Positions 38 through 27,237 of a DNA stretch of 27,237 bases are shown here, in pieces. Source of the stretch: a virus (taxonomy: Duplodnaviria > Caudoviricetes). Within the stretch, counting starts at the first letter, position 1. Every line of letters begins with the position of its first letter. The notes under the pieces were generated by a model. The model searched no databases, was not told the DNA's origin, and saw nothing but the letters and a program-made list of their open reading frames with translations. The stretch lies in the IMG/VR virus record IMGVR_UViG_3300007778_000327, positions 1 to 27,237 of that record. One strand, written 5' to 3'. Both the position numbers and the translations under genes were made by a program.

Positions 38-71
38 ACCCTTTCTAATCTACTATATTATGAGGTGCCAA

Positions 72-1010
72 ATGGCTGATGAATTTCTCTTCGTTGAACG
101 CTACCGTCCAAAAACTATCGACGAGTGTATCCTTCCTAACTCCCTGAAGCAAACGTTTAAGTCTATCGTGAATGGCGGTGAACTGCCTAACATGATGTTC
201 GCTGGTTCGGCTGGTGTTGGTAAGACTACTGTAGCAAAAGCGTTATGTAATGAGCTTGACCTAGATTACATCTTGATCAACGCTTCTGAAGACGGCAACA
301 TTGATACCCTGCGTACCAAAATCCGTCAGTTCGCTTCCTCCGTTTCTCTGTCTGGCGGGTACAAAGTTGTTATCCTCGATGAGGCTGACTACCTTAATGC
401 TCAGTCAACGCAGCCTGCTCTCCGTGGGTTTATCGAGGAGTTCTCTAATAACTGCCGATTCATTCTAACCTGTAACTTCAAGAACAAGATTATTGAACCG
501 CTCCACTCTCGTTGTTCGGTTTATGAGTTTGCTATTCCTAAGGATCAGAAACCTAAGATTGCGGCTCAGTTCTTTAAGCGCCTCCAGGAAATCCTCAATA
601 TCGAAAACATTGAGTTTGACCAGAAGGCACTGGCTGTACTGGTTGAGAAGCATTTTCCTGATTGGCGTCGAGTGTTGAATGAAGTTCAGCGTCACTCTAT
701 TACGGGCAAAATCGATGCTGGCTCTATTGTTGACCTGTCTGATGACAACTTCAATGTACTGACCAATTCGCTGAAGGACAAAGACTTTAAGGTGATGCGC
801 AAGTGGGTTGCTGACAATATTGACATTGAACCACAGGCTATCTTCCGTAAGATTTATGACACGATGTACGATAAGATTGAACCGCAATCTATCCCTCAAA
901 CCGTTGTAACCCTTGCCGAGTACCAGTACAAAAACGCATTCGTTGCTGACCATGAATTGAATGTTGTTGCTTGTATGACTGAACTTATGTCTGATGTAAG
1001 GTGGAAGTGA
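72..1010 (+). CDS. 44: Sliding clamp loader large subunit, AAA+ (T4 gp44)
   Basis: ERYRP, Walker A GSAGVGKTT, Walker B ILDEAD, SRC motif; ATG at 72 follows GAGG. Confidence 0.96.
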   Translation: MADEFLFVERYRPKTIDECILPNSLKQTFKSIVNGGELPNMMFAGSAGVGKTTVAKALCNELDLDYILINASEDGNIDTLRTKIRQFASSVSLSGGYKVVILDEADYLNAQSTQPALRGFIEEFSNNCRFILTCNFKNKIIEPLHSRCSVYEFAIPKDQKPKIAAQFFKRLQEILNIENIEFDQKALAVLVEKHFPDWRRVLNEVQRHSITGKIDAGSIVDLSDDNFNVLTNSLKDKDFKVMRKWVADNIDIEPQAIFRKIYDTMYDKIEPQSIPQTVVTLAEYQYKNAFVADHELNVVACMTELMSDVRWK

Positions 1011-1615
1011 TGGACTTAATATATGATTATGAGACCCTCTCAGCTAAAGTTGAGTCGGTTCCGGTGGTTACGCTGGCGACACTAAAGTTCGACAGGGAAA
1101 GGTTCAAAACCAATCCGTATACTTTCCCTGAGCTAGTAGAGTCATGTGTTCTGTACAAGTTTAATGTTGCTGAACAAATTGAGCGATACAAAAGGGTTAT
1201 TGATAAAGAAACGTTAGACTGGTGGCAGAACGTCCCTAAGGAAGTCCGCGATGCTCAGTTAAAACCTAGCCAGGATGACTTATCGGTTTCTAATATACCT
1301 TCGATTTTTAATTCGTTAGTAGATAAGAAAACAACTATATGGACTCGAGGAAATACTTTCGATCCTGTTATCACTGATATTTACTTTCGTCAATTAGAAG
1401 AGTATAATTACCCTTACAGCTGGTGGAATATTCGGGACACCCGTTCGTTTATAGACGGGCTGACATACGGTTCTGATATTTCAAATAGCTTTATACCCGA
1501 TGACCTGAAAGAAAAGTTTGATGCGCATGACCCTCGTCACGATATCTCTATGGACGTTATGCGTATGCAATACATTATTCGGTTGTTGTATTCTGATGAA
1601 CCACCTTGGGATTGA
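1010..1615 (+). CDS. dexA: DexA-like DEDDh 3'-5' exonuclease
   Basis: DYETL, WTRGNTFD, IRDTRS and HDPRHD motifs; TGATG overlap with the gp44 stop (alternative GTG start at 1001). Confidence 0.8.
   Translation: MDLIYDYETLSAKVESVPVVTLATLKFDRERFKTNPYTFPELVESCVLYKFNVAEQIERYKRVIDKETLDWWQNVPKEVRDAQLKPSQDDLSVSNIPSIFNSLVDKKTTIWTRGNTFDPVITDIYFRQLEEYNYPYSWWNIRDTRSFIDGLTYGSDISNSFIPDDLKEKFDAHDPRHDISMDVMRMQYIIRLLYSDEPPWD
1380..1408 (+). promoter_or_regulatory. Internal promoter within dexA, serving gp62/regA
   Basis: TTTACT-N17-TATAAT. Confidence 0.6.
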
Positions 1616-1617
1616 TT

Positions 1618-2001
1618 ATGGCATATTCACCTTTTGATTTTTTGAACGCAATAAACTACAGCAAAGAACAACTTATTGTTGATGCTGAAACCGAGAAACA
1701 GTACGTCCCCTTCAAGGTTAATATGGGGTTGTCGTACTTTGATGACACTGTTAGGCTCGCTAATGTTATGAACATGCACCACAAAATAGATAAGAAACTT
1801 CAGAACGATTTTCTTATAAATATTATTAGGAAACGGAAGAGATTCTCTAAATGGTTTAAACCTGAGAAGTCTTCCGACCTTGAAGTGGTCAAAGAATATT
1901 ATGGATATAGCACCGAAAAAGCTCGTCACGCTTTGACCTTACTAACTAATGAACAAATTGAAGAGTTAAAGAGAAGGACGTATAAGGGTGGAAGAAAATA
2001 A
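1618..2001 (+). CDS. 62: Clamp loader small subunit (T4 gp62)
   Basis: SPFDFLNAIN, RKRKRFSKW, VKEYYGYS; synteny with gp44 and regA. Confidence 0.92.
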   Translation: MAYSPFDFLNAINYSKEQLIVDAETEKQYVPFKVNMGLSYFDDTVRLANVMNMHHKIDKKLQNDFLINIIRKRKRFSKWFKPEKSSDLEVVKEYYGYSTEKARHALTLLTNEQIEELKRRTYKGGRK

Positions 2002-4683: not shown

Positions 4684-4712
4684 TTTACTTTTGAACTCAA
4701 TGGGCGTATACT
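4684..4712 (+). promoter_or_regulatory. Promoter for gp43
   Basis: TTTACT-N17-TATACT. Confidence 0.7.
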
Positions 4713-4732
4713 TATCGGTATATGCCCTTTTT
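4702..4732 (+). terminator. Terminator-like hairpin overlapping the gp43 promoter -10 box
   Basis: GGGCGTATAC-TTATCG-GTATATGCCC followed by TTTTT. Confidence 0.65.
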
Positions 4733-4750
4733 CATTATGGAGATAAAACA

Positions 4751-7285
4751 TTGTCTGAATTTTACACATCAGTTGAACGCTTTGGTAATTCCCTTCTCTA
4801 CCGAGGATACAAGAACGGTCAGCGTGTACAGGATAAGATTAAGTTCAAGCCGACCCTATTTGTCCCAGACGCGAAGTCTAGTACTTTCGCCCTAGATGGT
4901 TGCCCCGTATCTCACGTGAACTTTGACTCTATGCGAGACGCAAAAGAGTTCATGGAGCAGTACCGTGATATGCCTAACTTTAAAGTCTATGGCAATACAA
5001 ATTACGTTGTACAGTATATCCAAGAGAAATTCCCAGGCAAGAACATTGCGTTCTCTCGTGAAGATATTGACGTTGCCTCAATCGACATCGAGGTCTACTC
5101 AGCAGATGGGTTTCCGGAACCAGATGAAGCTGCTTATCCTGTAACCGCAATTTGTATGAAATCTTCTAAGGATGACACATATATCGTTTGGGGTACTAAG
5201 GACTATGACTACAGCAAACGTCACGAAGACCTGAAAGACGTGAAGATTGAATACCGCCAGTGTAAAGACGAAGCAACCCTACTTATGCAGTTCGTGTCGC
5301 ATTGGTCATCCCCGCTACATTGTCCAGATGTAGTGACTGGTTGGAACACCCGTTTCTTTGATATTCCGTACCTTGTGAACCGTATAGGCAAAGTCCTCGG
5401 TTCAGACATGGTGAAGAAACTAAGTCCATGGGGGTTAGTCAACGAGCGTAATTCTAAGATCAACGGTCGCGATGTACAGCGATACGAGCTCTCTGGTATC
5501 GCCGAGCTAGACTTCCTAGAACTGTTCAAGAAGTTCACATACTCAGCCCAGGAAAGCTACAAGCTTGACCACATTGCTCACGTAATCCTGGGCGAAAAGA
5601 AACTGAGTTATGAAGAGTTCGGTAACTTGTTCAACCTATACGTCGAAGACCATCAGCTGTTCATTGACTACAACGTCAAGGACGTGCTCCTTGTTCAGCG
5701 ACTTGAAGATAAGATGGGCTTGATTACCCTAGCTATGACACTGGCTTATCGCGGTGGCGTGAACTACTCCGAAACGCTCGGGACTACTGGTATTTGGGAC
5801 TCTATCATATACCGAGACCTTCACGACAAAGGCGTTGTCCTTCAGCCCAACGAAGAGAAGTTCAAGACTGAATTTGCGGGTGGTTACGTTAAAGCACCAA
5901 AGGTTGGTCTACATAACTGGGTCGTTTCTTTTGACTTGAACTCTCTGTACCCCCACCTTATCATGCAGGGCAATATGTCTCCCGAGACTATTCATGATGG
6001 TACGATGGGGTCGATCAGCGTAGAAAGCTGCCTCGACAAAGTTGAGATGAACCCAGGAGAGTATGCCGTTGCCCCTAATGGTGCGATGTTCCGGAAGGAT
6101 CAGCGTGGCGTTATCCCTACAATAATCGAAGAGATGTACGCTGAACGTAAAATGGCTAAGAAGGAAATGCTTCGCGCTGAGCAAGAATTGGTTGACCTTA
6201 AACAAACGAGCGGATATACGAAGGATGACGTGTACCAACTCGAGAAAAAGATATCGACTCTGAATAATAAACAGATGGCTATTAAGATCTTGATGAACTC
6301 ACTTTATGGCGCATTGGGCAACCGTTACTTCCGTCACTTTGACCTGCGTATGGCGGAGGCGATTACGTTGTACGGTCAGCTGGCTATCAAGTGGGCTGAA
6401 AAGGCATTTAATGGCTTCATGAATAAAGTCGTGGGGACTAAGAATTATGATTATGTCATCGCTATTGATACTGATTCTAACTACGTTGACTTTGGTCCTC
6501 TGGTTGAGAAGCTTGGTTACAAAGACAAACCAGTCAAAGAAACAGTCGCGCTGATCGATAAGATTTGTAAAGATCAGTTTGAACCAATGATTGCGAAGGC
6601 ATACAAAGAGCTCGCCGAGTACATGAACGCTTATGAAGATAAGATGGTTATGGAACGTGAGGTAATTGCCGACCGTGGTGTATGGGTAGCCAAGAAACGT
6701 TATATCCTGAACGTTCATAACTCTGAAGGCGTCGAGTACAAAGAACCTAAACTTAAGATGATGGGTATTGAGGCGGTCAAGTCTTCGACCCCAGGGATTT
6801 GTCGCGATGCTATGAAGGAACTATTCAAAGTCATCATGACAGGCTCCGAGAGCAATACTCAGAAGGCGATTGCTCAGTTTAAGGGTTACTTTACGAATCA
6901 GCCGCCAGAGTCTGTAAGCTTCCCTCGAGGCGTCTCTGACGTTATTAAGTGGCGCGATCGTAGTAATATCTACAAGAAGGGCACTCCGATCCACGTTCGC
7001 GGTGCTTTGATGTATAACCATACGCTTGAGCAAAAAGGGTTGAAGGTTTATCCAAAAATACAGAATGGCGATAAGGTCAAGTTCTGTTACTTGAAGAAAC
7101 CAAACCCGATAGGCGAGAACGTTATCTCTTATCCTGATTACTTGCCCGAAGAGCTTCAGCTTCACAAGTATGTGGACTATGAGACGATGTTTAACAAAAC
7201 GTTCCTCGATGCGATTACTCCGATTCTAGATGCGATTGGCTGGTCTGCTGAAGAGCGTGTAAGTATTGAGGATTTCTTTGGATGA
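4751..7285 (+). CDS. 43: Family B DNA polymerase (T4 gp43)
   Basis: Exo I DIE, FDLNSLYP, KILMNSLYG, IDTDS, KKRY; C-terminal clamp-binding tail SIEDFFG; TTG start at 4751 follows GGAG. Confidence 0.97.
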   Translation: MSEFYTSVERFGNSLLYRGYKNGQRVQDKIKFKPTLFVPDAKSSTFALDGCPVSHVNFDSMRDAKEFMEQYRDMPNFKVYGNTNYVVQYIQEKFPGKNIAFSREDIDVASIDIEVYSADGFPEPDEAAYPVTAICMKSSKDDTYIVWGTKDYDYSKRHEDLKDVKIEYRQCKDEATLLMQFVSHWSSPLHCPDVVTGWNTRFFDIPYLVNRIGKVLGSDMVKKLSPWGLVNERNSKINGRDVQRYELSGIAELDFLELFKKFTYSAQESYKLDHIAHVILGEKKLSYEEFGNLFNLYVEDHQLFIDYNVKDVLLVQRLEDKMGLITLAMTLAYRGGVNYSETLGTTGIWDSIIYRDLHDKGVVLQPNEEKFKTEFAGGYVKAPKVGLHNWVVSFDLNSLYPHLIMQGNMSPETIHDGTMGSISVESCLDKVEMNPGEYAVAPNGAMFRKDQRGVIPTIIEEMYAERKMAKKEMLRAEQELVDLKQTSGYTKDDVYQLEKKISTLNNKQMAIKILMNSLYGALGNRYFRHFDLRMAEAITLYGQLAIKWAEKAFNGFMNKVVGTKNYDYVIAIDTDSNYVDFGPLVEKLGYKDKPVKETVALIDKICKDQFEPMIAKAYKELAEYMNAYEDKMVMEREVIADRGVWVAKKRYILNVHNSEGVEYKEPKLKMMGIEAVKSSTPGICRDAMKELFKVIMTGSESNTQKAIAQFKGYFTNQPPESVSFPRGVSDVIKWRDRSNIYKKGTPIHVRGALMYNHTLEQKGLKVYPKIQNGDKVKFCYLKKPNPIGENVISYPDYLPEELQLHKYVDYETMFNKTFLDAITPILDAIGWSAEERVSIEDFFG

Positions 7286-10856: not shown

Positions 10857-12305
10857 ATGGAAAAAGTTACAATTAACGGTCGGCAATGGCAAAAGTATAT
10901 CGGTGACGAAGGGCAAGATGTTTATGTTGCCCTCTTCGTTGAAGACCAAGAGAACCTCATCGGCAAATACGCTGATGAGGATTCATTCGATATTCTCATT
11001 GACAAAGACGCTGACTTTTATCTACCGCCATCGTGTGATGTAGTCGCTTCTACTGACTGCGATAAGCAATGTATCAACTGTATAGGTGAAGACCGTGTTG
11101 CGTTCAAATTCCGTAAGAACGTATTCACGCAGGAAGAACAAGACGGTGCTTATGCTGGTCTTTACAGCGCTGCTGCTGAGTCTAACAACCGTGGTATGGC
11201 TGCTGGTCCTCGAGCCGAAACAAGTCAGGGTCGCGAATGGGTTACTCCGTTCCAGCGCGATATCCTGGACTTCTTTGCTAAGGGTTCTCCGCAGAACGTT
11301 ATGGGTACTGACCCAGTTGAGGACATTATCAAGAAACATGAAACCAAGCAGTACGAAACACGTGGCGAAGTTTGGTTGGTTCAAAAGGTCGAGAAAGAAT
11401 ATGAGGATTACCGCAATTTCTTTGATCAGTGCCTAGCCAAACTCCGTTCCCTTCCGGTAGATGAAGCTCGGGAATATGCTATACACGTTCGCGATACGAT
11501 GATCAGCGGAACTTCCTACGCTACTCCGCTGTGGTCCGGAATCACTGGCTTCTATGGACGCTACCCTCGTATCCCTTATGGTCGTGCTACTAGCCATGTA
11601 GAGCATAACCGAGAAGACTTTGAGAAGTGCTACCCGTTTGCCCGTAAACTCGACCAAGAGTTTGCTCGCTTACTTCCGCAGCGTTATGCGTACCAAAAAA
11701 GATGTGCTGACAGTATCGACCCTAAATTCTTGATTGGCGAGGATACTACCTTTACGACCGTTACAGTCAATACAACTCAGTCTGACCGAAATGCTCGTAT
11801 GGCTTGTCATAAGGATGCTGGTTCATTAAATGAGGGTTTCTCTAACCTTACTGTAATTGCTCCGAAAGGTAAATCATGGAAGGGCGGATACCTTACTGCT
11901 CCGGAAGTTCGCGCAGCTATTGATGTTCGACCAGGAGATCTACTCCTTATTGATAATATGCGAATAATTCACGGCAATCAGCCTATTGAAGCCCCTGACT
12001 CTGGCGAAGAAGACCTACTTCGTATGTCCCTTGTTTTCTACTTCCGTGAGGATATGTTACAACTAGGTTCTTGGGATTATGAGGCGCTGCGTCGTAAGTT
12101 TGTTGACGATCGTCGAACCAACAAAGAACATCCGTTATGGAAAGAGCGATGGAATGGCGTGAGTCCTGGTTTTATGAACGATAATTCAGAAGAATGGTAT
12201 CAATACCTTTTAGAACATGGAGGCGAAGAGTTGATGAAAGAAAACCAACCAGGGTTATGGGATCATTTCAACAACTCTAATGATTTAGAATCATTTTTCT
12301 CTTAG
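10857..12305 (+). CDS. TET/JBP-like 2OG-Fe(II) nucleic-acid dioxygenase
   Basis: FTTVTVN, RMACHKDAG (HxD), GGYL, PGDLLL, IHGN (distal His), RMSLVFYFRE (2OG-binding Arg). Confidence 0.82.
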   Translation: MEKVTINGRQWQKYIGDEGQDVYVALFVEDQENLIGKYADEDSFDILIDKDADFYLPPSCDVVASTDCDKQCINCIGEDRVAFKFRKNVFTQEEQDGAYAGLYSAAAESNNRGMAAGPRAETSQGREWVTPFQRDILDFFAKGSPQNVMGTDPVEDIIKKHETKQYETRGEVWLVQKVEKEYEDYRNFFDQCLAKLRSLPVDEAREYAIHVRDTMISGTSYATPLWSGITGFYGRYPRIPYGRATSHVEHNREDFEKCYPFARKLDQEFARLLPQRYAYQKRCADSIDPKFLIGEDTTFTTVTVNTTQSDRNARMACHKDAGSLNEGFSNLTVIAPKGKSWKGGYLTAPEVRAAIDVRPGDLLLIDNMRIIHGNQPIEAPDSGEEDLLRMSLVFYFREDMLQLGSWDYEALRRKFVDDRRTNKEHPLWKERWNGVSPGFMNDNSEEWYQYLLEHGGEELMKENQPGLWDHFNNSNDLESFFS

Positions 12306-13031
12306 GGTTTTACAATTGTCGAAGTGGTATCTATTCATGTTACCTTTGTGTTTGGATACCACTCCGCAATGAGGGCAAGTTATATCTTCTCTGCTGTTGA
12401 AAGTTCCTCTATATTTCTGTATTCGGGCTAAACGTTTATCTTTGTCATTATAGAAATCTTTCATAGATTGCTTGTGTGTTTCCCTAGCTTCTTCTGTGTG
12501 CATATGATGGTAGTTTAATTTACCGCTTTCTGAAAATTTATCCCTTGCTTCTTCAGATAGGTTTTTATTTGATAATCTTTGTTTTCTTGTCTCTTCGTCG
12601 TAGGCAGCCCAACCCATTTTAGATTTAGATTCTTCATTGTGAGTTTTGCCGAAGAATGGATTATTCTCTCCGGACATCCTTTTAGAATGTAGAGAATTTT
12701 TCCTACTGACATAAGATTCGTACAATTTAGAGTTTATATCTTTTCTAAAGAACTTGACTGCCGAATACGATTGCGATAATACATCAGGAAACGCTTTAGC
12801 GAGTATTAAGTGGGCTAACCTATGCGCCCTAGTTGGGAGCAATATTTTGTTCCAAGGGTTTTCCACTAAGTTTGTGTATTCTGGGAACATATCCTTAGCC
12901 TTTGGACATATGTGGTGCTTCTCGCCTTCGGTAGAGTCATTGTAAGCCTCTATTAACCGAATGTATCTTGACATGTAATGTTTGTTGTGAGGTTTTGATG
13001 CTAATATTGAATAAATAAGTTTGCTGTCCAT
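12291..13031 (-). mobile_element. Free-standing HNH homing endonuclease with NUMOD3 and a C-terminal Zn-ribbon
   Basis: EKHHICPK, NKILLPTRAHRLAH, NUMOD3 GENNPFFGKTH, CPHCG...HFDNC; AT-rich, antisense to its neighbours, AAGGAG SD. Confidence 0.85.
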
Positions 13032-13059
13032 TTACTTTCTCCTTAAGTTGTAGTATAAT
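13031..13059 (+). promoter_or_regulatory. Promoter for the GATase-amidoligase-GNAT genes
   Basis: TTTACT-N17-TATAAT overlapping the HNH start codon and SD on the opposite strand. Confidence 0.65.
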
Positions 13060-13099
13060 AACGGATAGAGTGGTTGGGGCGACCCGCGAACCATACCTT

Positions 13100-13107
13100 T
13101 ATTTATA
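13100..13107 (-). promoter_or_regulatory. Late promoter for the HNH gene
   Basis: TATTTATA on + equals TATAAATA on -, about 70 nt upstream of the HNH ATG. Confidence 0.65.
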
Positions 13108-13161
13108 ATTTTGCGATTTTCAGGGGTTAGCCCTGACATGTGGTTTAGAGGATTTCTTTTA

Positions 13162-13776
13162 ATGTGCGCAGTAATGGGATTTGAATTAAAAAACGTAACA
13201 AGAGATGATATAAGTGCTATCCGCACCCTATTCTTTGAATCACAAATCCGAGGGAGGCACGCTACTGGCGTGTCTTTCCTAAAAGAGGGTAAGATACATA
13301 CGATAAAGGAAGCTGTTGAGGCATCTGAATTTATAAAACATCATCCACCAATCGACTGGGTTGACGAGAACGGTAACATAACAGCTATCGCTCATTGTCG
13401 GTACAGTACTTCTGACTTGCGTTTTAATCAACCTATTGCTGACGAAAAGTTATCTGTTGTTCATAACGGTGTTATTTCGCAAGAACTTCCGGAGAATTGG
13501 TATAGACTCTATGGAATCAAATGCGAAACCGCTAACGACACCGAACTTCTTTTCCATCGCCCTTCTTTAAATGAGTGGGCAAATTCTTCAATTTCCGCTT
13601 TACTTTTGACAGTAAATGGAATAGAATATATGCGTAATGGTAAAAGACCATTATGGTGTGCTGACATTGAACACGGTCGTATATTTGCTTCGACTTCTGA
13701 CATTATAAGTAGAAGTCAATTCAAAACTAAATCAAAAAACCGAGTTAGTTTTGCTGGTATAGACTTACAACCATAG
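13162..13776 (+). CDS. Class II (Ntn) glutamine amidotransferase
   Basis: Starts MCAVMG (catalytic Cys2); RGRHATG, HCRYSTS, NQPI, HNGVI, NDTE; GAGGA SD. Confidence 0.9.
   Translation: MCAVMGFELKNVTRDDISAIRTLFFESQIRGRHATGVSFLKEGKIHTIKEAVEASEFIKHHPPIDWVDENGNITAIAHCRYSTSDLRFNQPIADEKLSVVHNGVISQELPENWYRLYGIKCETANDTELLFHRPSLNEWANSSISALLLTVNGIEYMRNGKRPLWCADIEHGRIFASTSDIISRSQFKTKSKNRVSFAGIDLQP
13599..13627 (+). promoter_or_regulatory. Internal promoter upstream of the amidoligase
   Basis: GC-TTTACT-N17-TAGAAT. Confidence 0.5.
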
Positions 13777-13784
13777 GATACATT

Positions 13785-14657
13785 ATGTACAATAAAGATG
13801 ATTTTACTTGGGGCTACGAGATTGAGTGGGGCGATATTGACCGTCGCCTAGAGATTCCGGAGCATCTAGGTTCTTGGGAATATTCAGAGACTGACGTAGT
13901 AAACCTGCGTCCACCATACAAATACGTTGCTTGTGATCCGCTCGGCGAAGACCCTCCGTTCGGGGGAGAGGTCAATACTAAACCGACCAAAACCTGGGAA
14001 GAACAGGTAGATCGAATCCAAGAGATTAAACAGTGGTTTACTGATCAGGGATGCGAGCCTACTTCAAACTGCCTAAGCCATTCGCATCTACACGTGTATG
14101 TGCCTGAGCTAACTAAAGATCTAGATGCCCTTAAGCGTTTGATCAAATACATTAAAGCGAACCAAGCTGACGTTGTAGAGAACTGCGGTCTATTCCATGA
14201 AGCGGCTTCCATGAAGAAAGCGAAAGGCGCTACCATGTATATGAAATATGACGGTGGACGCCAGATGCCTGATTACATGGCTGACAATATTATTAATCTG
14301 GCTAAAGACTTTGATCACTTCATCAAGCTCCATGCTGCTGGCAAGGACGGTGTTTCGATGGGTCGCCCTTTCCGTTACGCGATTAACACCTACTGCCTAA
14401 AACATACTGGAACAATCGAGTTTCGGTGTTTTCGGGCTACCACAGAACGTAAGCATATGGAATCTATGTTCCGTTTCGTTGAGGCGTTTATTGATGCTGC
14501 CCTAAACGATGGTCCGAGCGTTAAAGAAATTTTGGCTGATGGCGACTATGAGTTTCCGCCATTCCAGTGGGACTTGAATCAGTGGATAGGGCACCAAAAG
14601 ACAAAGTGGGACAAAGACCGTGGCAAAAAACAGCGAGCATACATTGAAGTTGCGTAG
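13785..14657 (+). CDS. Putative amidoligase (COOH-NH2 ligase, glutamine synthetase/GCS fold)
   Basis: TWGYEIEW (ExE), GEVNT, HLHV, RYAIN, TIEFRCF. Confidence 0.82.
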   Translation: MYNKDDFTWGYEIEWGDIDRRLEIPEHLGSWEYSETDVVNLRPPYKYVACDPLGEDPPFGGEVNTKPTKTWEEQVDRIQEIKQWFTDQGCEPTSNCLSHSHLHVYVPELTKDLDALKRLIKYIKANQADVVENCGLFHEAASMKKAKGATMYMKYDGGRQMPDYMADNIINLAKDFDHFIKLHAAGKDGVSMGRPFRYAINTYCLKHTGTIEFRCFRATTERKHMESMFRFVEAFIDAALNDGPSVKEILADGDYEFPPFQWDLNQWIGHQKTKWDKDRGKKQRAYIEVA

Positions 14658-15177
14658 CACGACAGCGGAGGAGTTTACCTCCGCTATATCTGATGACCCT
14701 GCGGATAAGTTCGCCAATACCTTTATTGCGAAGGCGAACATGCAGGGGTTATGGGATAAGTGTATAGGGTTATGGGATGGCGACCAGCTTGCTGGCGCTA
14801 TCATAACGACTGTGTCTAAACGTTCACCAAAAGTAGCAAACCTACAACTCCTCCATACGTTTGCGGCTCATAGGGGTAAGGGTGTTGCCCGAATCCTTTG
14901 CGAAGATTCTCTTGAGCGAGTAAAGGGGCAGGCGACATACTTCCGTGTGTCCTCTGAAATCCCTGCTATTAAGTTCTACGAGAAGATCGGCTTTACTTTC
15001 CAAGGTAAACAGAAAAGTGGCTGCCAGCTATCTATCTTCCGCATAAACAATACTTTCGCTGATAGCTATTATCAGCTAGACGATCCTGTCATCTACTCCG
15101 CAGTACACAAGAAAGGCAAAGGCGGTTGCGTCGAAGTCTTTCTTGAATCACCAAAAGGGTTAGAAGATTTCTTCTGA
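14644..15177 (+). CDS. GNAT acetyltransferase
   Basis: Motif A HRGKGVA, motif B AIKFYEKIGF; start at TTG 14644 or GTG 14620. Confidence 0.88.
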   Translation: MKLRSTTAEEFTSAISDDPADKFANTFIAKANMQGLWDKCIGLWDGDQLAGAIITTVSKRSPKVANLQLLHTFAAHRGKGVARILCEDSLERVKGQATYFRVSSEIPAIKFYEKIGFTFQGKQKSGCQLSIFRINNTFADSYYQLDDPVIYSAVHKKGKGGCVEVFLESPKGLEDFF

Positions 15178-15207
15178 TCCTTATTCCTATTTGATATAAT
15201 AATTTCC

Positions 15208-15236
15208 TTTACTTTTATCCCAGATCCACCTATAAT
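15208..15236 (+). promoter_or_regulatory. Early promoter
   Basis: TTTACT-N17-TATAAT; upstream element shared with the 7822 promoter. Confidence 0.8.
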
Positions 15237-15265
15237 TACCTTGTATTGAGATCGAGGACTATATC

Positions 15266-16573
15266 ATGGCTAAAAAAAATCAAGCGTTCGTATACGGTTG
15301 GAATAATATTCAGAACAAAAAGAAATACGTAGGATTTCGTAAGAGTAGCGAAATCAACGACGGCTACAAATTTTCATCAGAAGACAAAGAGCTTAAAAGG
15401 GATTGGTCAAGAGGTTTACTACACAGGTCAATCCTTTTTGTAGGTACACCCGAAGAAGCTATAAAATACGAAAGCAAACTACTACACCACTTTAACGCAC
15501 GCACCAACGGGCAGTTTTACAACAAGTCAAACGGAGGCGGAGTAGGTTGTAAAGGTTGGGAGGAACTTTCAGAGAGCGTAATTCAGGGAGGAATAGATTG
15601 GGTTGAGAAGGGTATAGAGCCAATCACAGAATCAAAAGACACTTACGATGTAATCGATACAAAACTAGTTAATCGGATTTGGAAAAACTGCCAAGAGGGG
15701 AAATACCAAGTAGTTGAAACTAATATTGAGGAAATTCGTAAATTTGATCACAACCAGGTTCGTTTAGTATTATTAGACCCGAAACACGTACAAGCTATTG
15801 CGGAGAAGATGGAAGACGACCCAGCAGAGGCTCGTACTAACGTTTCTCCAATTATAGTTTGCGTCAGCCCAGACGGTACACGAACTATACTAGACGGAAA
15901 CCACACTTCCAGGGCAGTAGATGTAGCTAATTGGCAATCAGCGCCAGTTATATACTTAAATTCTTCGGAGTTTAATGATAGCCAGTCGAATATGGATAAG
16001 TTTGGTAACGTTGCTAATCACAACCCTAAATTGAAGAAACCAAATAGTTCACGTGATTGCCAGAGAGCTATCACAAACTTATGGGCGAACAACTTTAGGG
16101 ATAATGACCCAAACCTTGAGATCCTACAAAGTGAAAAATTTAAAAACACTTGTTTAGAAGTTTTTTACCCACTTTGGTCGCTAAGGGAGATCGCTTCTAA
16201 CTACAGTAAAGCAGTCATTAACGTAAAAACAGATAAGGCGACAGCTGACCTTAACTTTATTAAATACAGTTCAAAGGAGCTTGACGCTATCGCTAAATCT
16301 GTTAGAGACCGCAACCCTGATTTGGCAGTGATTACGGTATCTTCTGGCGCTTGTTACAACTCTGGTATTGGTGGGGTTCTTAACAAGATGGGCGGTATGG
16401 ATAATTGGAATGGAATGCTTATTATTCACCACGGCAACATTAATGAATACGAGCTTTGGACGGAATCTGAAGCCAAGCTACATAAAGCTTTAAAACGTGT
16501 TCACCCCGATTGCGATATAAAGATTCGAATTCTTAAAGCATTCGAGACGAAACAAAAACGAGTAAATCTTTAA
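15266..16573 (+). CDS. GIY-YIG-like N-terminal domain fused to a ParB/Srx-like domain
   Basis: FVYGW..KKYVG..GYKFSS..E..FYN (Seg-like); SPIIV...ILDGNHT (ParB/Srx motif). Confidence 0.7.
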   Translation: MAKKNQAFVYGWNNIQNKKKYVGFRKSSEINDGYKFSSEDKELKRDWSRGLLHRSILFVGTPEEAIKYESKLLHHFNARTNGQFYNKSNGGGVGCKGWEELSESVIQGGIDWVEKGIEPITESKDTYDVIDTKLVNRIWKNCQEGKYQVVETNIEEIRKFDHNQVRLVLLDPKHVQAIAEKMEDDPAEARTNVSPIIVCVSPDGTRTILDGNHTSRAVDVANWQSAPVIYLNSSEFNDSQSNMDKFGNVANHNPKLKKPNSSRDCQRAITNLWANNFRDNDPNLEILQSEKFKNTCLEVFYPLWSLREIASNYSKAVINVKTDKATADLNFIKYSSKELDAIAKSVRDRNPDLAVITVSSGACYNSGIGGVLNKMGGMDNWNGMLIIHHGNINEYELWTESEAKLHKALKRVHPDCDIKIRILKAFETKQKRVNL

Positions 16574-17586
16574 TGAACTATAACGAAAACCGAAGAGAGG
16601 CTTTCATTAAGTGGTATGCGTGGTCCTTGGAATTCAAGGACTGCGACCCCGCTGTTTGGATGACCAATTACCTTAATGATAGATTTGAACATAACTCAGA
16701 GCAGCGTATCTGGCTGTCTTGGTTGTATGGCAATACATACTACCTACCAACCGCTTGGGTTCTTATTAATGAGTTCCCTGACTTTGAGTTGGCTACCTAT
16801 GACCGAATGAACCAATGGAACACGGAGAACTATAAACGTCTCCGCTACCAAACGGACACAAAATGGTCTAAGGGACACTTAGCCGATATGTTCAAATCCT
16901 ATCATGCTTTCGTTGGAGATAAAACCCAGCGCGAAGTATTTGAGCAGTATATGGGGGATAACGAAGAACAAAATTTCGATAAACTATATGAAGTCGTCAA
17001 AGATAAGTTCTACAAGTTCGGACGCTATTCTACTTGGTTCTTTCTACAGCACCTAAATCATACCGCCAATATCCCAAACGTACCAGATAGTTTATTGCTA
17101 GATGACTTTAGCGGTTCTCGCTCTCATCGTAATGGCTTATTGCTGGCGCTCGGTAAGGATGATCAGTACGATGTACGTCAGACTATTGGGGAATATGCTT
17201 GGCTCGAAGCAGAAGCAAAAAGTATAATGGAAGAGATGAAAAGTCGCTTCCCACACTTGACTTCTGAGATAAATCCGTTTACAATGGAAACCTGTCTCTG
17301 TTCATTTAAGAAGATATTCCGAGTGCGTCATGGCAGATACTTGGGGTATTACAATGACAGGGTCGCAGAGGAGATCTCTAAGGTTGAATCTGATGGTTGG
17401 TATGGTATTGAGTGGCGTGTACTTTGGGACGCTCGTAGAGAAACTCTTGATGCTAGGCTGTATGATTCAAACGTTATCCAAAAGGGTAAGATGGCTGAGT
17501 TCGTTGAAACTAATAATATTGACCGACTAGACTGGATGTTCAAAGAAGACGAACCAGTCTCAATGGGTCTTGATGCTTTTATGTGA
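16573..17586 (+). CDS. Amino acid:DNA transferase (aGPT-Pplase2-like, HhH glycosylase fold)
   Basis: DCDP, WLYGNTY, HhH-like KFGRYSTWF, SRSHRNGL, METCLCSFKK, RYLGYY. Confidence 0.78.
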   Translation: MNYNENRREAFIKWYAWSLEFKDCDPAVWMTNYLNDRFEHNSEQRIWLSWLYGNTYYLPTAWVLINEFPDFELATYDRMNQWNTENYKRLRYQTDTKWSKGHLADMFKSYHAFVGDKTQREVFEQYMGDNEEQNFDKLYEVVKDKFYKFGRYSTWFFLQHLNHTANIPNVPDSLLLDDFSGSRSHRNGLLLALGKDDQYDVRQTIGEYAWLEAEAKSIMEEMKSRFPHLTSEINPFTMETCLCSFKKIFRVRHGRYLGYYNDRVAEEISKVESDGWYGIEWRVLWDARRETLDARLYDSNVIQKGKMAEFVETNNIDRLDWMFKEDEPVSMGLDAFM

Positions 17587-17593
17587 GGATATT

Positions 17594-18139
17594 ATGAAAC
17601 TAATTTATTTGATTGGCGTGCCAGGAACAGGTAAGTCTACAATCATGAAAGAATTTATGAGCAGATTCGATGGGTGGAAAACCGACCGTCCGATTGACCT
17701 GCTAGACACGCACGTGAGCGGGAACGTGCGCGTGCTCGGGAAATACGAAGAAGGCGAAACGTTCTCAGGGACAGACCGTTTGTCTATGGCTGTCGCGCCA
17801 AAAGCAATTGAATACTTTACTTCTAACCCAGAAGAGGTTATAATAGGTGAAGGTGATAGATTGAATAACAAAGGCGTTTTTGAATCTGTTGAAGATAAAG
17901 TCATAATCCATCTAACGGTCTCGGATAAAGAACGTCAACGTCGATACGATGAACGTGGCTCGGAGCAGAGTGATAAGTTCATCCAAACAGTAGCAACTAA
18001 ATGTAAAAATATAGTAGAGGCTTTCGGCGATCAGCAAACCCTATTCGGCGAAGAAGAGGGATGTATTGTTGAGTTCAAACACGAGACTCCTGAGGATACG
18101 CAAAAAGTCGTGGAGTATATGATGTCATGTATTCGCTAA
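17594..18139 (+). CDS. P-loop nucleotide kinase associated with base modification
   Basis: GVPGTGKST, GTDRLS, EGDRL, RYDERGS; adjacent to the transferase; GAGGA SD. Confidence 0.82.
   Translation: MKLIYLIGVPGTGKSTIMKEFMSRFDGWKTDRPIDLLDTHVSGNVRVLGKYEEGETFSGTDRLSMAVAPKAIEYFTSNPEEVIIGEGDRLNNKGVFESVEDKVIIHLTVSDKERQRRYDERGSEQSDKFIQTVATKCKNIVEAFGDQQTLFGEEEGCIVEFKHETPEDTQKVVEYMMSCIR
17816..17844 (+). promoter_or_regulatory. Internal promoter upstream of the primase-like gene
   Basis: TTTACT-N17-TATAAT. Confidence 0.6.
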
Positions 18140-25791: not shown

Positions 25792-27237
25792 TGAAAGGCT
25801 TCACTCAGTTCCTAAACGAGACTATAATTAAAAAGGATGGTAAGTATCGTCTGGTGTCAAAGTCAGGTAAGAACCTTGGTGAATTTGATACTAGAGATGA
25901 AGCCGAGGAGCGCGAGCGCGAGATTCAATACTTTAAAAGTAAAAATGAAGAGCATGGCGCAGGCGAAGAAGGCACACCGGAATTATTAAGGAAGTATAAA
26001 AAAGATACCCCAATGGAAGGTTTCGATGCTTTCAGTTCTTTACTCACCGAAGAAAAGAACACCCATATGACGCACATCGAAGATCAGGTTATCTATGGTG
26101 GTGTTAACGGAGCGCGGGAAGCCATCCTAGCTCTCAGGTCCCTCCGCGATATGCTCGCAGGTAATAGTAAAGGATCGACTGACGTAACTGTTAAATGGGA
26201 TGGCGCTCCTGCCGTTTTCTGTGGTATAGACCCTGAAGACGGTAAATTCTTTGTGGCAAAGAAAGGTATCTTTAATAAGAACCCGAAAGTCTATAAAACT
26301 AAACAGGATATCTACGACGACATAGATAATGCAGAGTTGGCTCAGAAGATGCTTGTTTCTCTTGAAGAGCTATCTAAACTAGGAATTAAAGGCGTTGTTC
26401 AAGGTGACATCATGTTTACTGACGACGTCAAGGAAGAGACAATTGACGGCGAAAAATATCTTACTTTTCATCCTAATACTATTGTGTACGCTGTACCTAG
26501 TGAATCAGAAGCCGCTCGGAGTATTCGTAAAGCCAAAATCGGTGTCGTGTTCCATACAGCCTACAATGGGTCTTCCTTCGCCGACATGCGAGCGAGTTAT
26601 GGAGTAGACGTAAGTAAGTTCAAATCAGTTCCTACAGTATGGGCGGAAAGTGCTACGTTGAAAGACTTATCGGGCACTGTAACTCTAACGCAAAAAGATA
26701 CAAAAGAAGTTACTGATGCGCTGTCAACCGCAGGTAAGATTTTCTCGCGAATATCTGGTTCTACGTTAAGAGAACTAGAAGCTCATCCTGATTTACCACG
26801 TTTGATTGAGACTTATAATAACTCCTTTGTACGCAAGGGTGAAGTCATCAAGGATACCAGAAATCACGTTGAAGGTTTGATCAAATTCATTGAAGAACGT
26901 TACGCAAAAGAAATTGATAAGCGCAAGTCTGAGAAAGGTAAGCAGGCTCAACGAGACAAGTTGGACACTATCCTTGAATTTTTTAATCGTAAAAACAAGC
27001 CATCTTTGGTCCAGATTTTTGAATTACAGAAGGCTATCGTCAACGCCAAGATGATAGTTATTAAGAAACTAAATAAGCTAAATAATATAAATACTTTTGT
27101 TAAGACCAAGAATGGCTTTAAGGTTACTGGCGCAGAAGGGTTTGTTGCTATAGACCATATGAAAGGTGGAGCGGTTAAGCTCGTCGATCGTATGGAGTTT
27201 TCAATGAACAACTTTGATCCAGATATTGTGAAAGGTT
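25791..27237 (+). CDS. DUF6267-like protein with ligase-type nucleotidyltransferase motifs; 3'-truncated and absent from the ORF track
   Basis: Frame read by hand from ATG 25791 and in phase at the window end: MKGFTQFLNE, KNTHMTHIED, VKWDGAPA, QGDIMF, PNTIVYAVP, EGFVAID, AVKLVDRMEFS. Confidence 0.8.
   Translation, partial: MKGFTQFLNETIIKKDGKYRLVSKSGKNLGEFDTRDEAEEREREIQYFKSKNEEHGAGEEGTPELLRKYKKDTPMEGFDAFSSLLTEEKNTHMTHIEDQVIYGGVNGAREAILALRSLRDMLAGNSKGSTDVTVKWDGAPAVFCGIDPEDGKFFVAKKGIFNKNPKVYKTKQDIYDDIDNAELAQKMLVSLEELSKLGIKGVVQGDIMFTDDVKEETIDGEKYLTFHPNTIVYAVPSESEAARSIRKAKIGVVFHTAYNGSSFADMRASYGVDVSKFKSVPTVWAESATLKDLSGTVTLTQKDTKEVTDALSTAGKIFSRISGSTLRELEAHPDLPRLIETYNNSFVRKGEVIKDTRNHVEGLIKFIEERYAKEIDKRKSEKGKQAQRDKLDTILEFFNRKNKPSLVQIFELQKAIVNAKMIVIKKLNKLNNINTFVKTKNGFKVTGAEGFVAIDHMKGGAVKLVDRMEFSMNNFDPDIVKG

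Follow-up and report, generated by a model that had tools for sequence, protein, structure and literature searches.

The 27,237-nucleotide stretch of viral DNA analysed here (IMG/VR record IMGVR_UViG_3300007778_000327, positions 1 to 27,237; hereafter the window) is a fragment of a T4-like phage genome that encodes gp44, gp62, RegA, gp43, UvsX, and gp41, as assigned from Pfam and PHROG profiles. It co-encodes a thymidine-hypermodification set identified by Pfam: a TET/JBP-type dioxygenase as the source of 5-hydroxymethyluracil (5hmU), a P-loop kinase, and an amino acid:DNA transferase. The DNA polymerase gp43 ends in SIEDFFG, and three enzymes of the modification cluster carry similar short C-terminal tails: the dioxygenase (DLESFFS), a GNAT acetyltransferase (GLEDFF), and the transferase (GLDAFM). 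An earlier sequence-only reading of the window proposed that these three enzymes are recruited by the sliding clamp gp45 of the phage. The four termini that it quoted are all present as given, at the coordinates listed in Table 1. The glutamine amidotransferase (GATase), amidoligase, ligase, ThyX, and dCMP deaminase lack a tail, as it also stated, and so do two proteins that it did not list, the P-loop kinase (17570-18139) and an open reading frame (ORF) with GIY-YIG- and ParB-like parts (15266-16573). The ligase of the window also has no internal match to the patterns tried.

The gp45 clamp gene is located outside the window, upstream of it, on fragment L031 (protein P0361); L031 and the window share 10,100 bases at 99.99% identity. 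This upstream DNA was located by a metagenome scan; a scan of viral contigs gave no match. The gp45 family profile matches the solved gp45 chains 1b77, 1czd, and 6drt. The same genome thus encodes the clamp and its gp44/gp62 loader. The gene for gp55 is also on L031, and its product ends in GIELFMGGY. The known clamp partners of this phage, gp43 and gp55, both carry the motif; gp33 was not found among the fragments of this phage, that is, the window and its flanks. The common partner of gp43, gp55, and gp33 of T4 is gp45 (PMC2988020), each of whose three subunits can bind peptide independently (PMC6212786). The T4 DNA ligase peptide KKEPEGLDFLFDA binds gp45 with a dissociation constant of 10.7 µM (PMC6212786) and can be set beside the GNAT terminus EPEGLTEFF of the related phage G001.

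A strict pattern, [LI]xxF[FLM] at most three residues from the stop, was counted in ORF sets produced by a purpose-built, simple, codon-trained ORF caller. It is present in 4 of 40 window ORFs and in 5 of the 69 ORFs of this phage (window plus the matching flanks L031 and L022), namely gp43, gp55, the dioxygenase, the GNAT, and the transferase. The relative G001 has six matches among 143 ORFs: gp43, gp55, the three enzymes, and baseplate protein gp26. The pattern occurs at 244 of 85,926 internal pseudo-termini (0.28%). Twelve phage proteomes with 2,177 ORFs contain 36 matches; polymerases, gp55, and modification enzymes account for 20 of them and other proteins for 16 (16/2,157 other ORFs, 0.7%). 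The sequence-only reading had proposed counting such termini across the proteome, and the motif proves to be rare, with a background below 1%, and not equally common elsewhere. The probability of at least three matches among the eight cluster genes is 5e-5 at an assumed rate of 1%, for a pattern that was picked with the tails already seen.

When the 69 ORFs are ranked by likeness to the tail of their own polymerase, the GNAT is second and the dioxygenase third. The transferase tail is the weakest match, with a score of 8 among ties below rank 9 of 69, and is closer in appearance to the GIELFM of gp55. As a control of the method, T4 termini were ranked in the same way, and gp43, gp55, and gp33 took the top three positions of 254; the SLDFLF register of T4 itself is not matched by the strict pattern. 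The fourth rank in this phage is held by a 103-residue ORF on the minus strand of L031 (10890-11201), two genes downstream of gp45, which ends in LYEDLFG and which, by its position, we presume may be a DsbA-type double-stranded-DNA-binding protein.

Conservation was evaluated in the best 119 non-self homologues per enzyme, of 1,405, 1,953, and 478 found for the three enzymes. The strict tail is retained in 115 of 119 dioxygenases and 47 of 119 transferases, and all 119 transferases have looser G[LF][DEV]x[FWL] ends. An earlier tail pattern gave a low count for the transferase (55/120) because the last position varies. In the GNAT the strict tail is limited to 30 of 119 homologues, 19 of them among the closest 30 and 11 among the remaining 89. 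The conservation expected from the sequence-only reading thus holds for the dioxygenase and, with the looser pattern, for the transferase, but is patchy for the GNAT. In a survey of 149 viral loci, in which distinct termini were counted and those of this phage were included, the core motif is present in gp43 (23/23), dioxygenase (63/74), transferase (69/86), and GNAT (32/47), and absent from GATase (0/78), amidoligase (0/57), and kinase (0/67), as well as from the controls UvsX (0/28) and gp41 (0/33). Dioxygenases and transferases that miss the motif mostly have near-variants, such as LEDMF and GLEALW. A longer amidoligase-like paralogue in two loci (L089 and L093) ends in EESFFG or QESFFE, a tail-like end in an otherwise tail-less family.

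The tails are located far past the Pfam domains, which cover residues 40-250 of 337 in the transferase (ADDT), 248-398 of 482 in the dioxygenase (Tet_JBP), and 22-132 of 185 in the GNAT. Column conservation in the dioxygenase tail is 0.98 for the leucine and 0.96 for each phenylalanine, compared with 0.28-0.62 and insertions or deletions in the linker; the transferase tail has values of 1.0 (G), 0.98 (L), 0.90 (E), and 0.94 (F). A variable linker ahead of the motif is clear in the dioxygenase and GNAT, whereas that of the transferase varies in sequence but hardly in length. Homologues from M6 (a siphovirus with a family A polymerase, in which gp45 was not searched for), Magpie, and HTVC112P are tail-less, and gp45 was not found in Magpie or HTVC112P. 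A sequence search for solved relatives of the transferase gave no match, and the solved-structure matches of the dioxygenase and GNAT are distant and uninformative on the tails.

If the tails dock on gp45, they are expected to change when the polymerase tail changes. The strongest evidence for clamp docking, as judged from the sequences, is that between lineages the enzyme tails usually appear to do so. In phages C48C1, DLP6, and Cr30, the nearest matches to each polymerase tail are a Dam-type methyltransferase, dioxygenases, and TET-associated glycosyltransferases. The polymerase of phiW-14 ends in KLGAFFV, its gp37 kinase in GLGGFFKG, and its gp109 transferase in GLGSFFR; the accessions in Table 1 of PMC8989533 identify gp37 and gp109 as the characterised kinase and putrescine transferase. 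Polymerases of LIMEstone1, Sa157lw, phiMAM1, Madison, and Bue1 end in NL[LM]xM[ML] followed by basic residues, as do most of their kinases and transferases; in phiMAM1, the polymerase ends in VNLLSMMGKR and the transferase in VNLLSMLGGKK. The Ackermannviridae transferases are orthologues forming one clade (96/99), in which the whole tail was swapped in step with the clamp partners. The polymerase of Vibrio phage D506 has acquired an extension that ends in KKARKLW, its gp33 ends in KTRKLF, and three hypermodification enzymes end in KTKKLW, KTRKLW, and STKRLW, a pattern found at 6 of 201 ORF ends. In Vibrio phage YC, the polymerase ends in AARRLF and the kinase in KTNRLF.

A set of 41 modification enzymes from 15 genomes, which includes tail-less ones, was scored against the tail classes, and for 32 of them the highest score was with their own class. 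None of the other relabellings of the classes, 120 in total, reached 32, and the next best gave 31. The net charge of the clamp connector, which we take to be the segment corresponding to T4 gp45 residues 102-118, is opposite to the tail charge (Spearman coefficients of -0.67 across 11 polymerases and -0.71 across 10 tail-bearing enzymes), with -0.41 for the gp26 control and G001 as an exception. The charge trend is a lead only, because the segment was picked from a viewed alignment, G001 breaks the trend, and related phages share states.

Several further proteins of these phages were noted. The exonuclease gp32 and the NrdA.1-like gp98 (DUF4326) of phiW-14 (W09, 26496-27356 and 81188-81487) also end in GLGxFF, as does its polymerase. 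A small cysteine-rich protein near the ligase gene in three Ackermannviridae-type phages (W04, 26219-26443; W06, 55591-55890; W08, 67069-67290) carries the polymerase-type tail of each phage and has no Pfam match (two were tested); it is possibly a clamp partner or a ligase adaptor. Two tail-bearing LIMEstone ORFs were rejected as homing endonucleases, since Pfam assigns them 5-hydroxymethyldeoxyuridine (5-hmdU) kinase domains. ORF186 of LIMEstone1 (W04, 144332-145927), annotated as homing endonuclease F-LimXI, continues after its endonuclease part into a complete 5-hmdU DNA kinase domain (HMUD2, residues 236-530). Other annotations are also misleading: the dioxygenase homologues of DLP6 and Cr30 (L011, 11962-13308; L012, 11995-13323) are labelled 'SNF2 DNA repair protein', and the kinases phiW-14 gp37 and M6 gp54 (L349, 5848-6633; L351, 16686-17249) 'terminase small subunit'.

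The dioxygenase of the window has an HxD motif at residues 318-320 and a histidine at 372. The homing endonuclease gene, antisense to it, shares the last 15 bases of the dioxygenase gene, which are tail codons, and leaves the tail intact; this endonuclease is missing in loci L004, L006, and L007. The 435-residue GIY-YIG/ParB-like ORF has no Pfam or NCBIfam match, and Atlas features and a TM score of about 0.45 to ParB proteins provide a lead to its assignment. The tail-less kinase contains an internal eight-residue insert with the sequence QQTLFG (approximately 18032-18049). A TL[FW]G insert is present in 12 of 67 kinases and is similar to the short tail variants of some GNATs (QQITLF, QQVTLF). 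By analogy with the internal loop of T4 ligase, this insert could be a candidate clamp-binding loop.

Table 1 Clamp-loader, polymerase, and modification-cluster genes of the window and their C-terminal tails.
Feature	Position	Strand	C-terminal tail (with stop codon)	Profile matches
gp44 clamp-loader large subunit	60-1010	+		Pfam Gp44_lid E 1.7e-11; PHROG 168 E 2.5e-120
gp62 clamp-loader small subunit	1606-2001	+		Pfam Phage_clamp_A E 2.9e-11
gp43 family B DNA polymerase	4691-7285	+	SIEDFFG, 7262-7285 (reference tail)	Pfam DNA_pol_B; PHROG 262
TET/JBP-type 5-methylpyrimidine dioxygenase, 482 aa	10857-12305	+	DLESFFS, 12282-12305	Pfam Tet_JBP E 1.3e-12
NUMOD3-bearing homing endonuclease, passenger	12291-13031	-		PHROG 655 E 5e-26; Pfam NUMOD3
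Class II glutamine amidotransferase (GATase) domain	13111-13776	+	none	Pfam GATase_6 E 4e-10
Amidoligase-like protein (weak assignment)	13785-14657	+	none	PHROG 7469 E 3e-4; TIGR02050 E 0.06
GNAT acetyltransferase	14620-15177	+	GLEDFF, 15157-15177	Pfam Acetyltransf_10 E 8e-11
GIY-YIG-like N-terminus and possible ParB/Srx-like domain	15266-16573	+	none	PHROG 314, residues 2-117
Amino acid:DNA transferase (ADDT)	16573-17586	+	GLDAFM, 17566-17586	Pfam ADDT E 9e-22, residues 40-250
P-loop kinase, likely 5hmU-DNA kinase	17570-18139	+	none	Pfam Ploopntkinase3 E 4e-17

The tails resemble the gp45 epitopes of T4 gp43, gp55, and gp33 and the peptide of RB69 polymerase in its structure with the clamp, in that an acidic-hydrophobic extreme C-terminus follows a variable linker, is shared by several proteins, and belongs to a phage with gp45 and gp44/62 (PMC2988020, PMC9690074, PMC6212786). 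They differ from the T4 epitopes in being carried by base-modifying enzymes of three unrelated folds, in their LxxFF register as opposed to LDFLF, and in being known from sequence. T4 DNA ligase is likewise a non-polymerase enzyme with a GLDFLF-type peptide in the gp45 pocket; its peptide, however, is an internal loop (PMC6212786). DNMT1 bound to PCNA is a similar case of clamp-guided base modification of newly replicated DNA (PMC9690074). It differs in serving eukaryotic maintenance methylation with a single enzyme and a PCNA-binding motif, whereas several steps of an anti-restriction pathway are concerned here.

An interaction between T4 alpha-glucosyltransferase and gp45 was reportedly described by Sommer in 2004. 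This enzyme, like those of the window, modifies DNA post-replicatively; it co-purifies with gp45 in vitro and was proposed to modify DNA alongside replication (PMC13216743), an interaction that the preprint 10.64898/2025.12.06.692756 had not seen. It differs as a single enzyme with no polymerase-like tail. Its interface with gp45 differs from tail docking, because it has no tail and was bound despite a C-terminal His tag. Its authors credit modification levels mainly to expression and activity (PMC13216743). Thus a phage modification enzyme on gp45 and DNMT1 on PCNA are already known. Published thymidine-hypermodification clusters with TET_JBP, kinase, amino acid:DNA transferase, and amidoligase/amidotransferase genes have an identical gene set (PMC8989533; PMC13229309). 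The searched parts of these two papers contain no link between the clamp and hypermodification, and the word 'clamp' does not occur in the supplements of PMC13229309. Parts 1-2 of 4 of Dataset S11 of PMC13229309 contain 49 tested enzymes, which are far shorter than the 482-residue dioxygenase; as judged by eye, none of them ends in the motif. The ParB-dependent T-dioxygenases of that paper have about 300 residues and a short basic C-terminal extension, in contrast to the acidic-hydrophobic tail found here. Full-text literature searches, whose coverage excludes most subscription journals, found no paper describing polymerase-type tails on hypermodification enzymes.

We consider it probable that the dioxygenase, GNAT, and transferase are recruited by the phage gp45 through their polymerase-type C-terminal tails. 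This claim of the sequence-only reading is well supported by the conservation of the tails, their rarity in the proteome, the cognate gp45, gp44, and gp62, and the lineage-matched tails, from which binding is predicted. The hydrophobic pocket of this phage's gp45 would receive the short acidic-hydrophobic tails, as it would those of gp43 and gp55. The gp44/62 loader would place gp45 only on phage replication intermediates (primer-template junctions), and clamps at the fork or left behind it could act as a tool-belt that recruits the dioxygenase, transferase, and GNAT to newly replicated DNA. By a pathway chemistry that we infer from PMC8989533 and PMC13229309, the dioxygenase would convert thymine to 5hmU, the tail-less kinase would phosphorylate it, acting freely or via a partner, the transferase would put an amine donor in place of the phosphate, and acetylation by the GNAT would cap the amine on DNA; provision or extension of the amine may be the role of the GATase and amidoligase. 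With the tether, modification would be faster and more complete before packaging or restriction; for catalysis, the tether is probably dispensable.

The sequence-only reading further proposed that the tails confine modification to phage DNA. This is plausible here but is not their general purpose. The first substrate of the dioxygenase is probably plain thymine, and the tether would therefore bias the first step to phage DNA. The thymidylate-synthase-like protein of M6 has no match among the 69 ORFs of this phage and the 143 of G001, both genomes being partial. In contrast, phiW-14 and Ackermannviridae encode thymidylate-synthase-like proteins and modify 5hmU already present in phage DNA (PMC8989533). 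Their tails cannot serve to discriminate self from host, because their 5hmU substrate is already phage-specific. Another proposal was that a tail marks an enzyme acting on DNA and its absence one acting on soluble substrates. A DNA-acting GNAT does have a precedent in PaMx11 gp48, which acetylates a base in DNA (PMC8989533). The proposal fails as a rule, since the kinase is tail-less, T4 ligase uses an internal loop (PMC6212786), and T4 alpha-glucosyltransferase, which has no such tail, co-purifies with gp45 (PMC13216743). The missing tail on the GATase and amidoligase does not show that their substrates are soluble.

Several observations weigh against clamp recruitment through the tails. The kinase, whose expected step on DNA follows the dioxygenase and precedes the transferase, has no tail in this lineage (0 of 67 distinct termini). 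Of the 119 best GNAT homologues, 33 stop directly past the fold, and some tail-less GNATs occur in loci where the dioxygenase and transferase tails persist. In Cr30, the transferase and kinase are tail-less and the dioxygenase ends only in GATLF. The termini of T4 alpha- and beta-glucosyltransferase and Dam have no tail, and the ViI and phiW-14 kinases are active in reactions described without a clamp (PMC8989533). In the lineage comparison, 9 of 41 enzymes miss their own class, two of the 32 matches (T4 beta-glucosyltransferase and Dam) are low-score accidents, and the lineages number only four or five independent ones, with classes drawn after the tails had been seen. Enzymes of phiA8-29 end in TK[KR]LW, similar to its gp33 (KTARLF) and unlike its polymerase (NVLKFFK). 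The motif alone is not diagnostic, because gp26 ends similarly in several genomes. Baseplate gp26 (PF12322; L021, 4777-5481, and homologues in nine other genomes) has a conserved G[LIM]xxFF-like end in most T4-like genomes, which does not clearly track the polymerase tail; this protein is either a false positive that keeps recurring or a clamp partner still to be explained.

It is also conceivable, if improbable, that the tails form a common code for docking to something else than gp45, for instance the beta clamp of the host, the ParB-like protein of the cluster, or another part of the replisome. Bacterial beta-clamp binding motifs are of the QLxLF type, with a glutamine ahead of the hydrophobic core; a conserved glutamine is absent from the tail columns of the three alignments. 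The simultaneous presence of two tail classes in phiA8-29 favors another partner. A ParB-like one would fit the position of its ORF between the GNAT and transferase and the requirement of published ParB-dependent dioxygenases for a C-terminal extension (PMC13229309), yet no such motif is present in the extension published for 5mYOX176, and in C48C1 and DLP6 the tail is on a Dam-type methyltransferase and a TET-associated glycosyltransferase. The tail is, moreover, common to gp43, gp55, and D506 gp33, whose known shared partner in T4 is gp45 (PMC2988020).

The conserved termini, chiefly the GLxxF of the transferase, could instead be the last structural element of each fold and pack against their own enzymes; the same may hold for gp26, which retains a similar end in most genomes. 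The transferase has an invariant glycine, a linker that follows a conserved WMF and hardly varies in length, and a poor match to the polymerase tail. We nevertheless judge such packing unlikely: the tails are far outside the Pfam domains, GNAT homologues and transferases of clamp-less phages manage without them, and the orthologous Ackermannviridae transferases exchange the whole tail in step with the clamp partners. Chance resemblance has the least to recommend it and is very improbable. Short hydrophobic termini are common, the pattern was fitted afterwards, and 16 unrelated ORFs in the 12 proteomes match it; however, the sub-1% background, the low probability of three matches in eight cluster genes, and the retention of the motif in more than 100 homologues while the linker drifts largely refute this explanation.

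Beyond recruitment by gp45 in this phage, we see about even chances for a broader account, in which T4-like phages carry out hypermodification with the clamp as a tool-belt whose address code is specific to the lineage. Enzymes unrelated to one another would have repeatedly gained a copy of the tail of their own polymerase or gp33, the code would have been rewritten several times (LEDFF, GLGxFF, NLLxMM-K, KxxKLW), and the charge of the clamp connector loop would have changed to match. If this is true, the tail would make it possible to recognise DNA-acting enzymes and as yet unknown clamp partners by sequence alone. Recruitment to the clamp can be tested on cultured phages with characterised enzymes, such as phiW-14 gp37 and gp109 and the ViI-type kinase and transferase; it would mean that these enzymes are underestimated when they are assayed in E. 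coli lacking gp45 and its loader or when they carry C-terminal tags. Clamp recruitment offers an account of how an enzyme oxidising ordinary thymine could prefer phage over host DNA, and a testable account of how post-replicative enzymes complete the modification of the phage genome before restriction or packaging.

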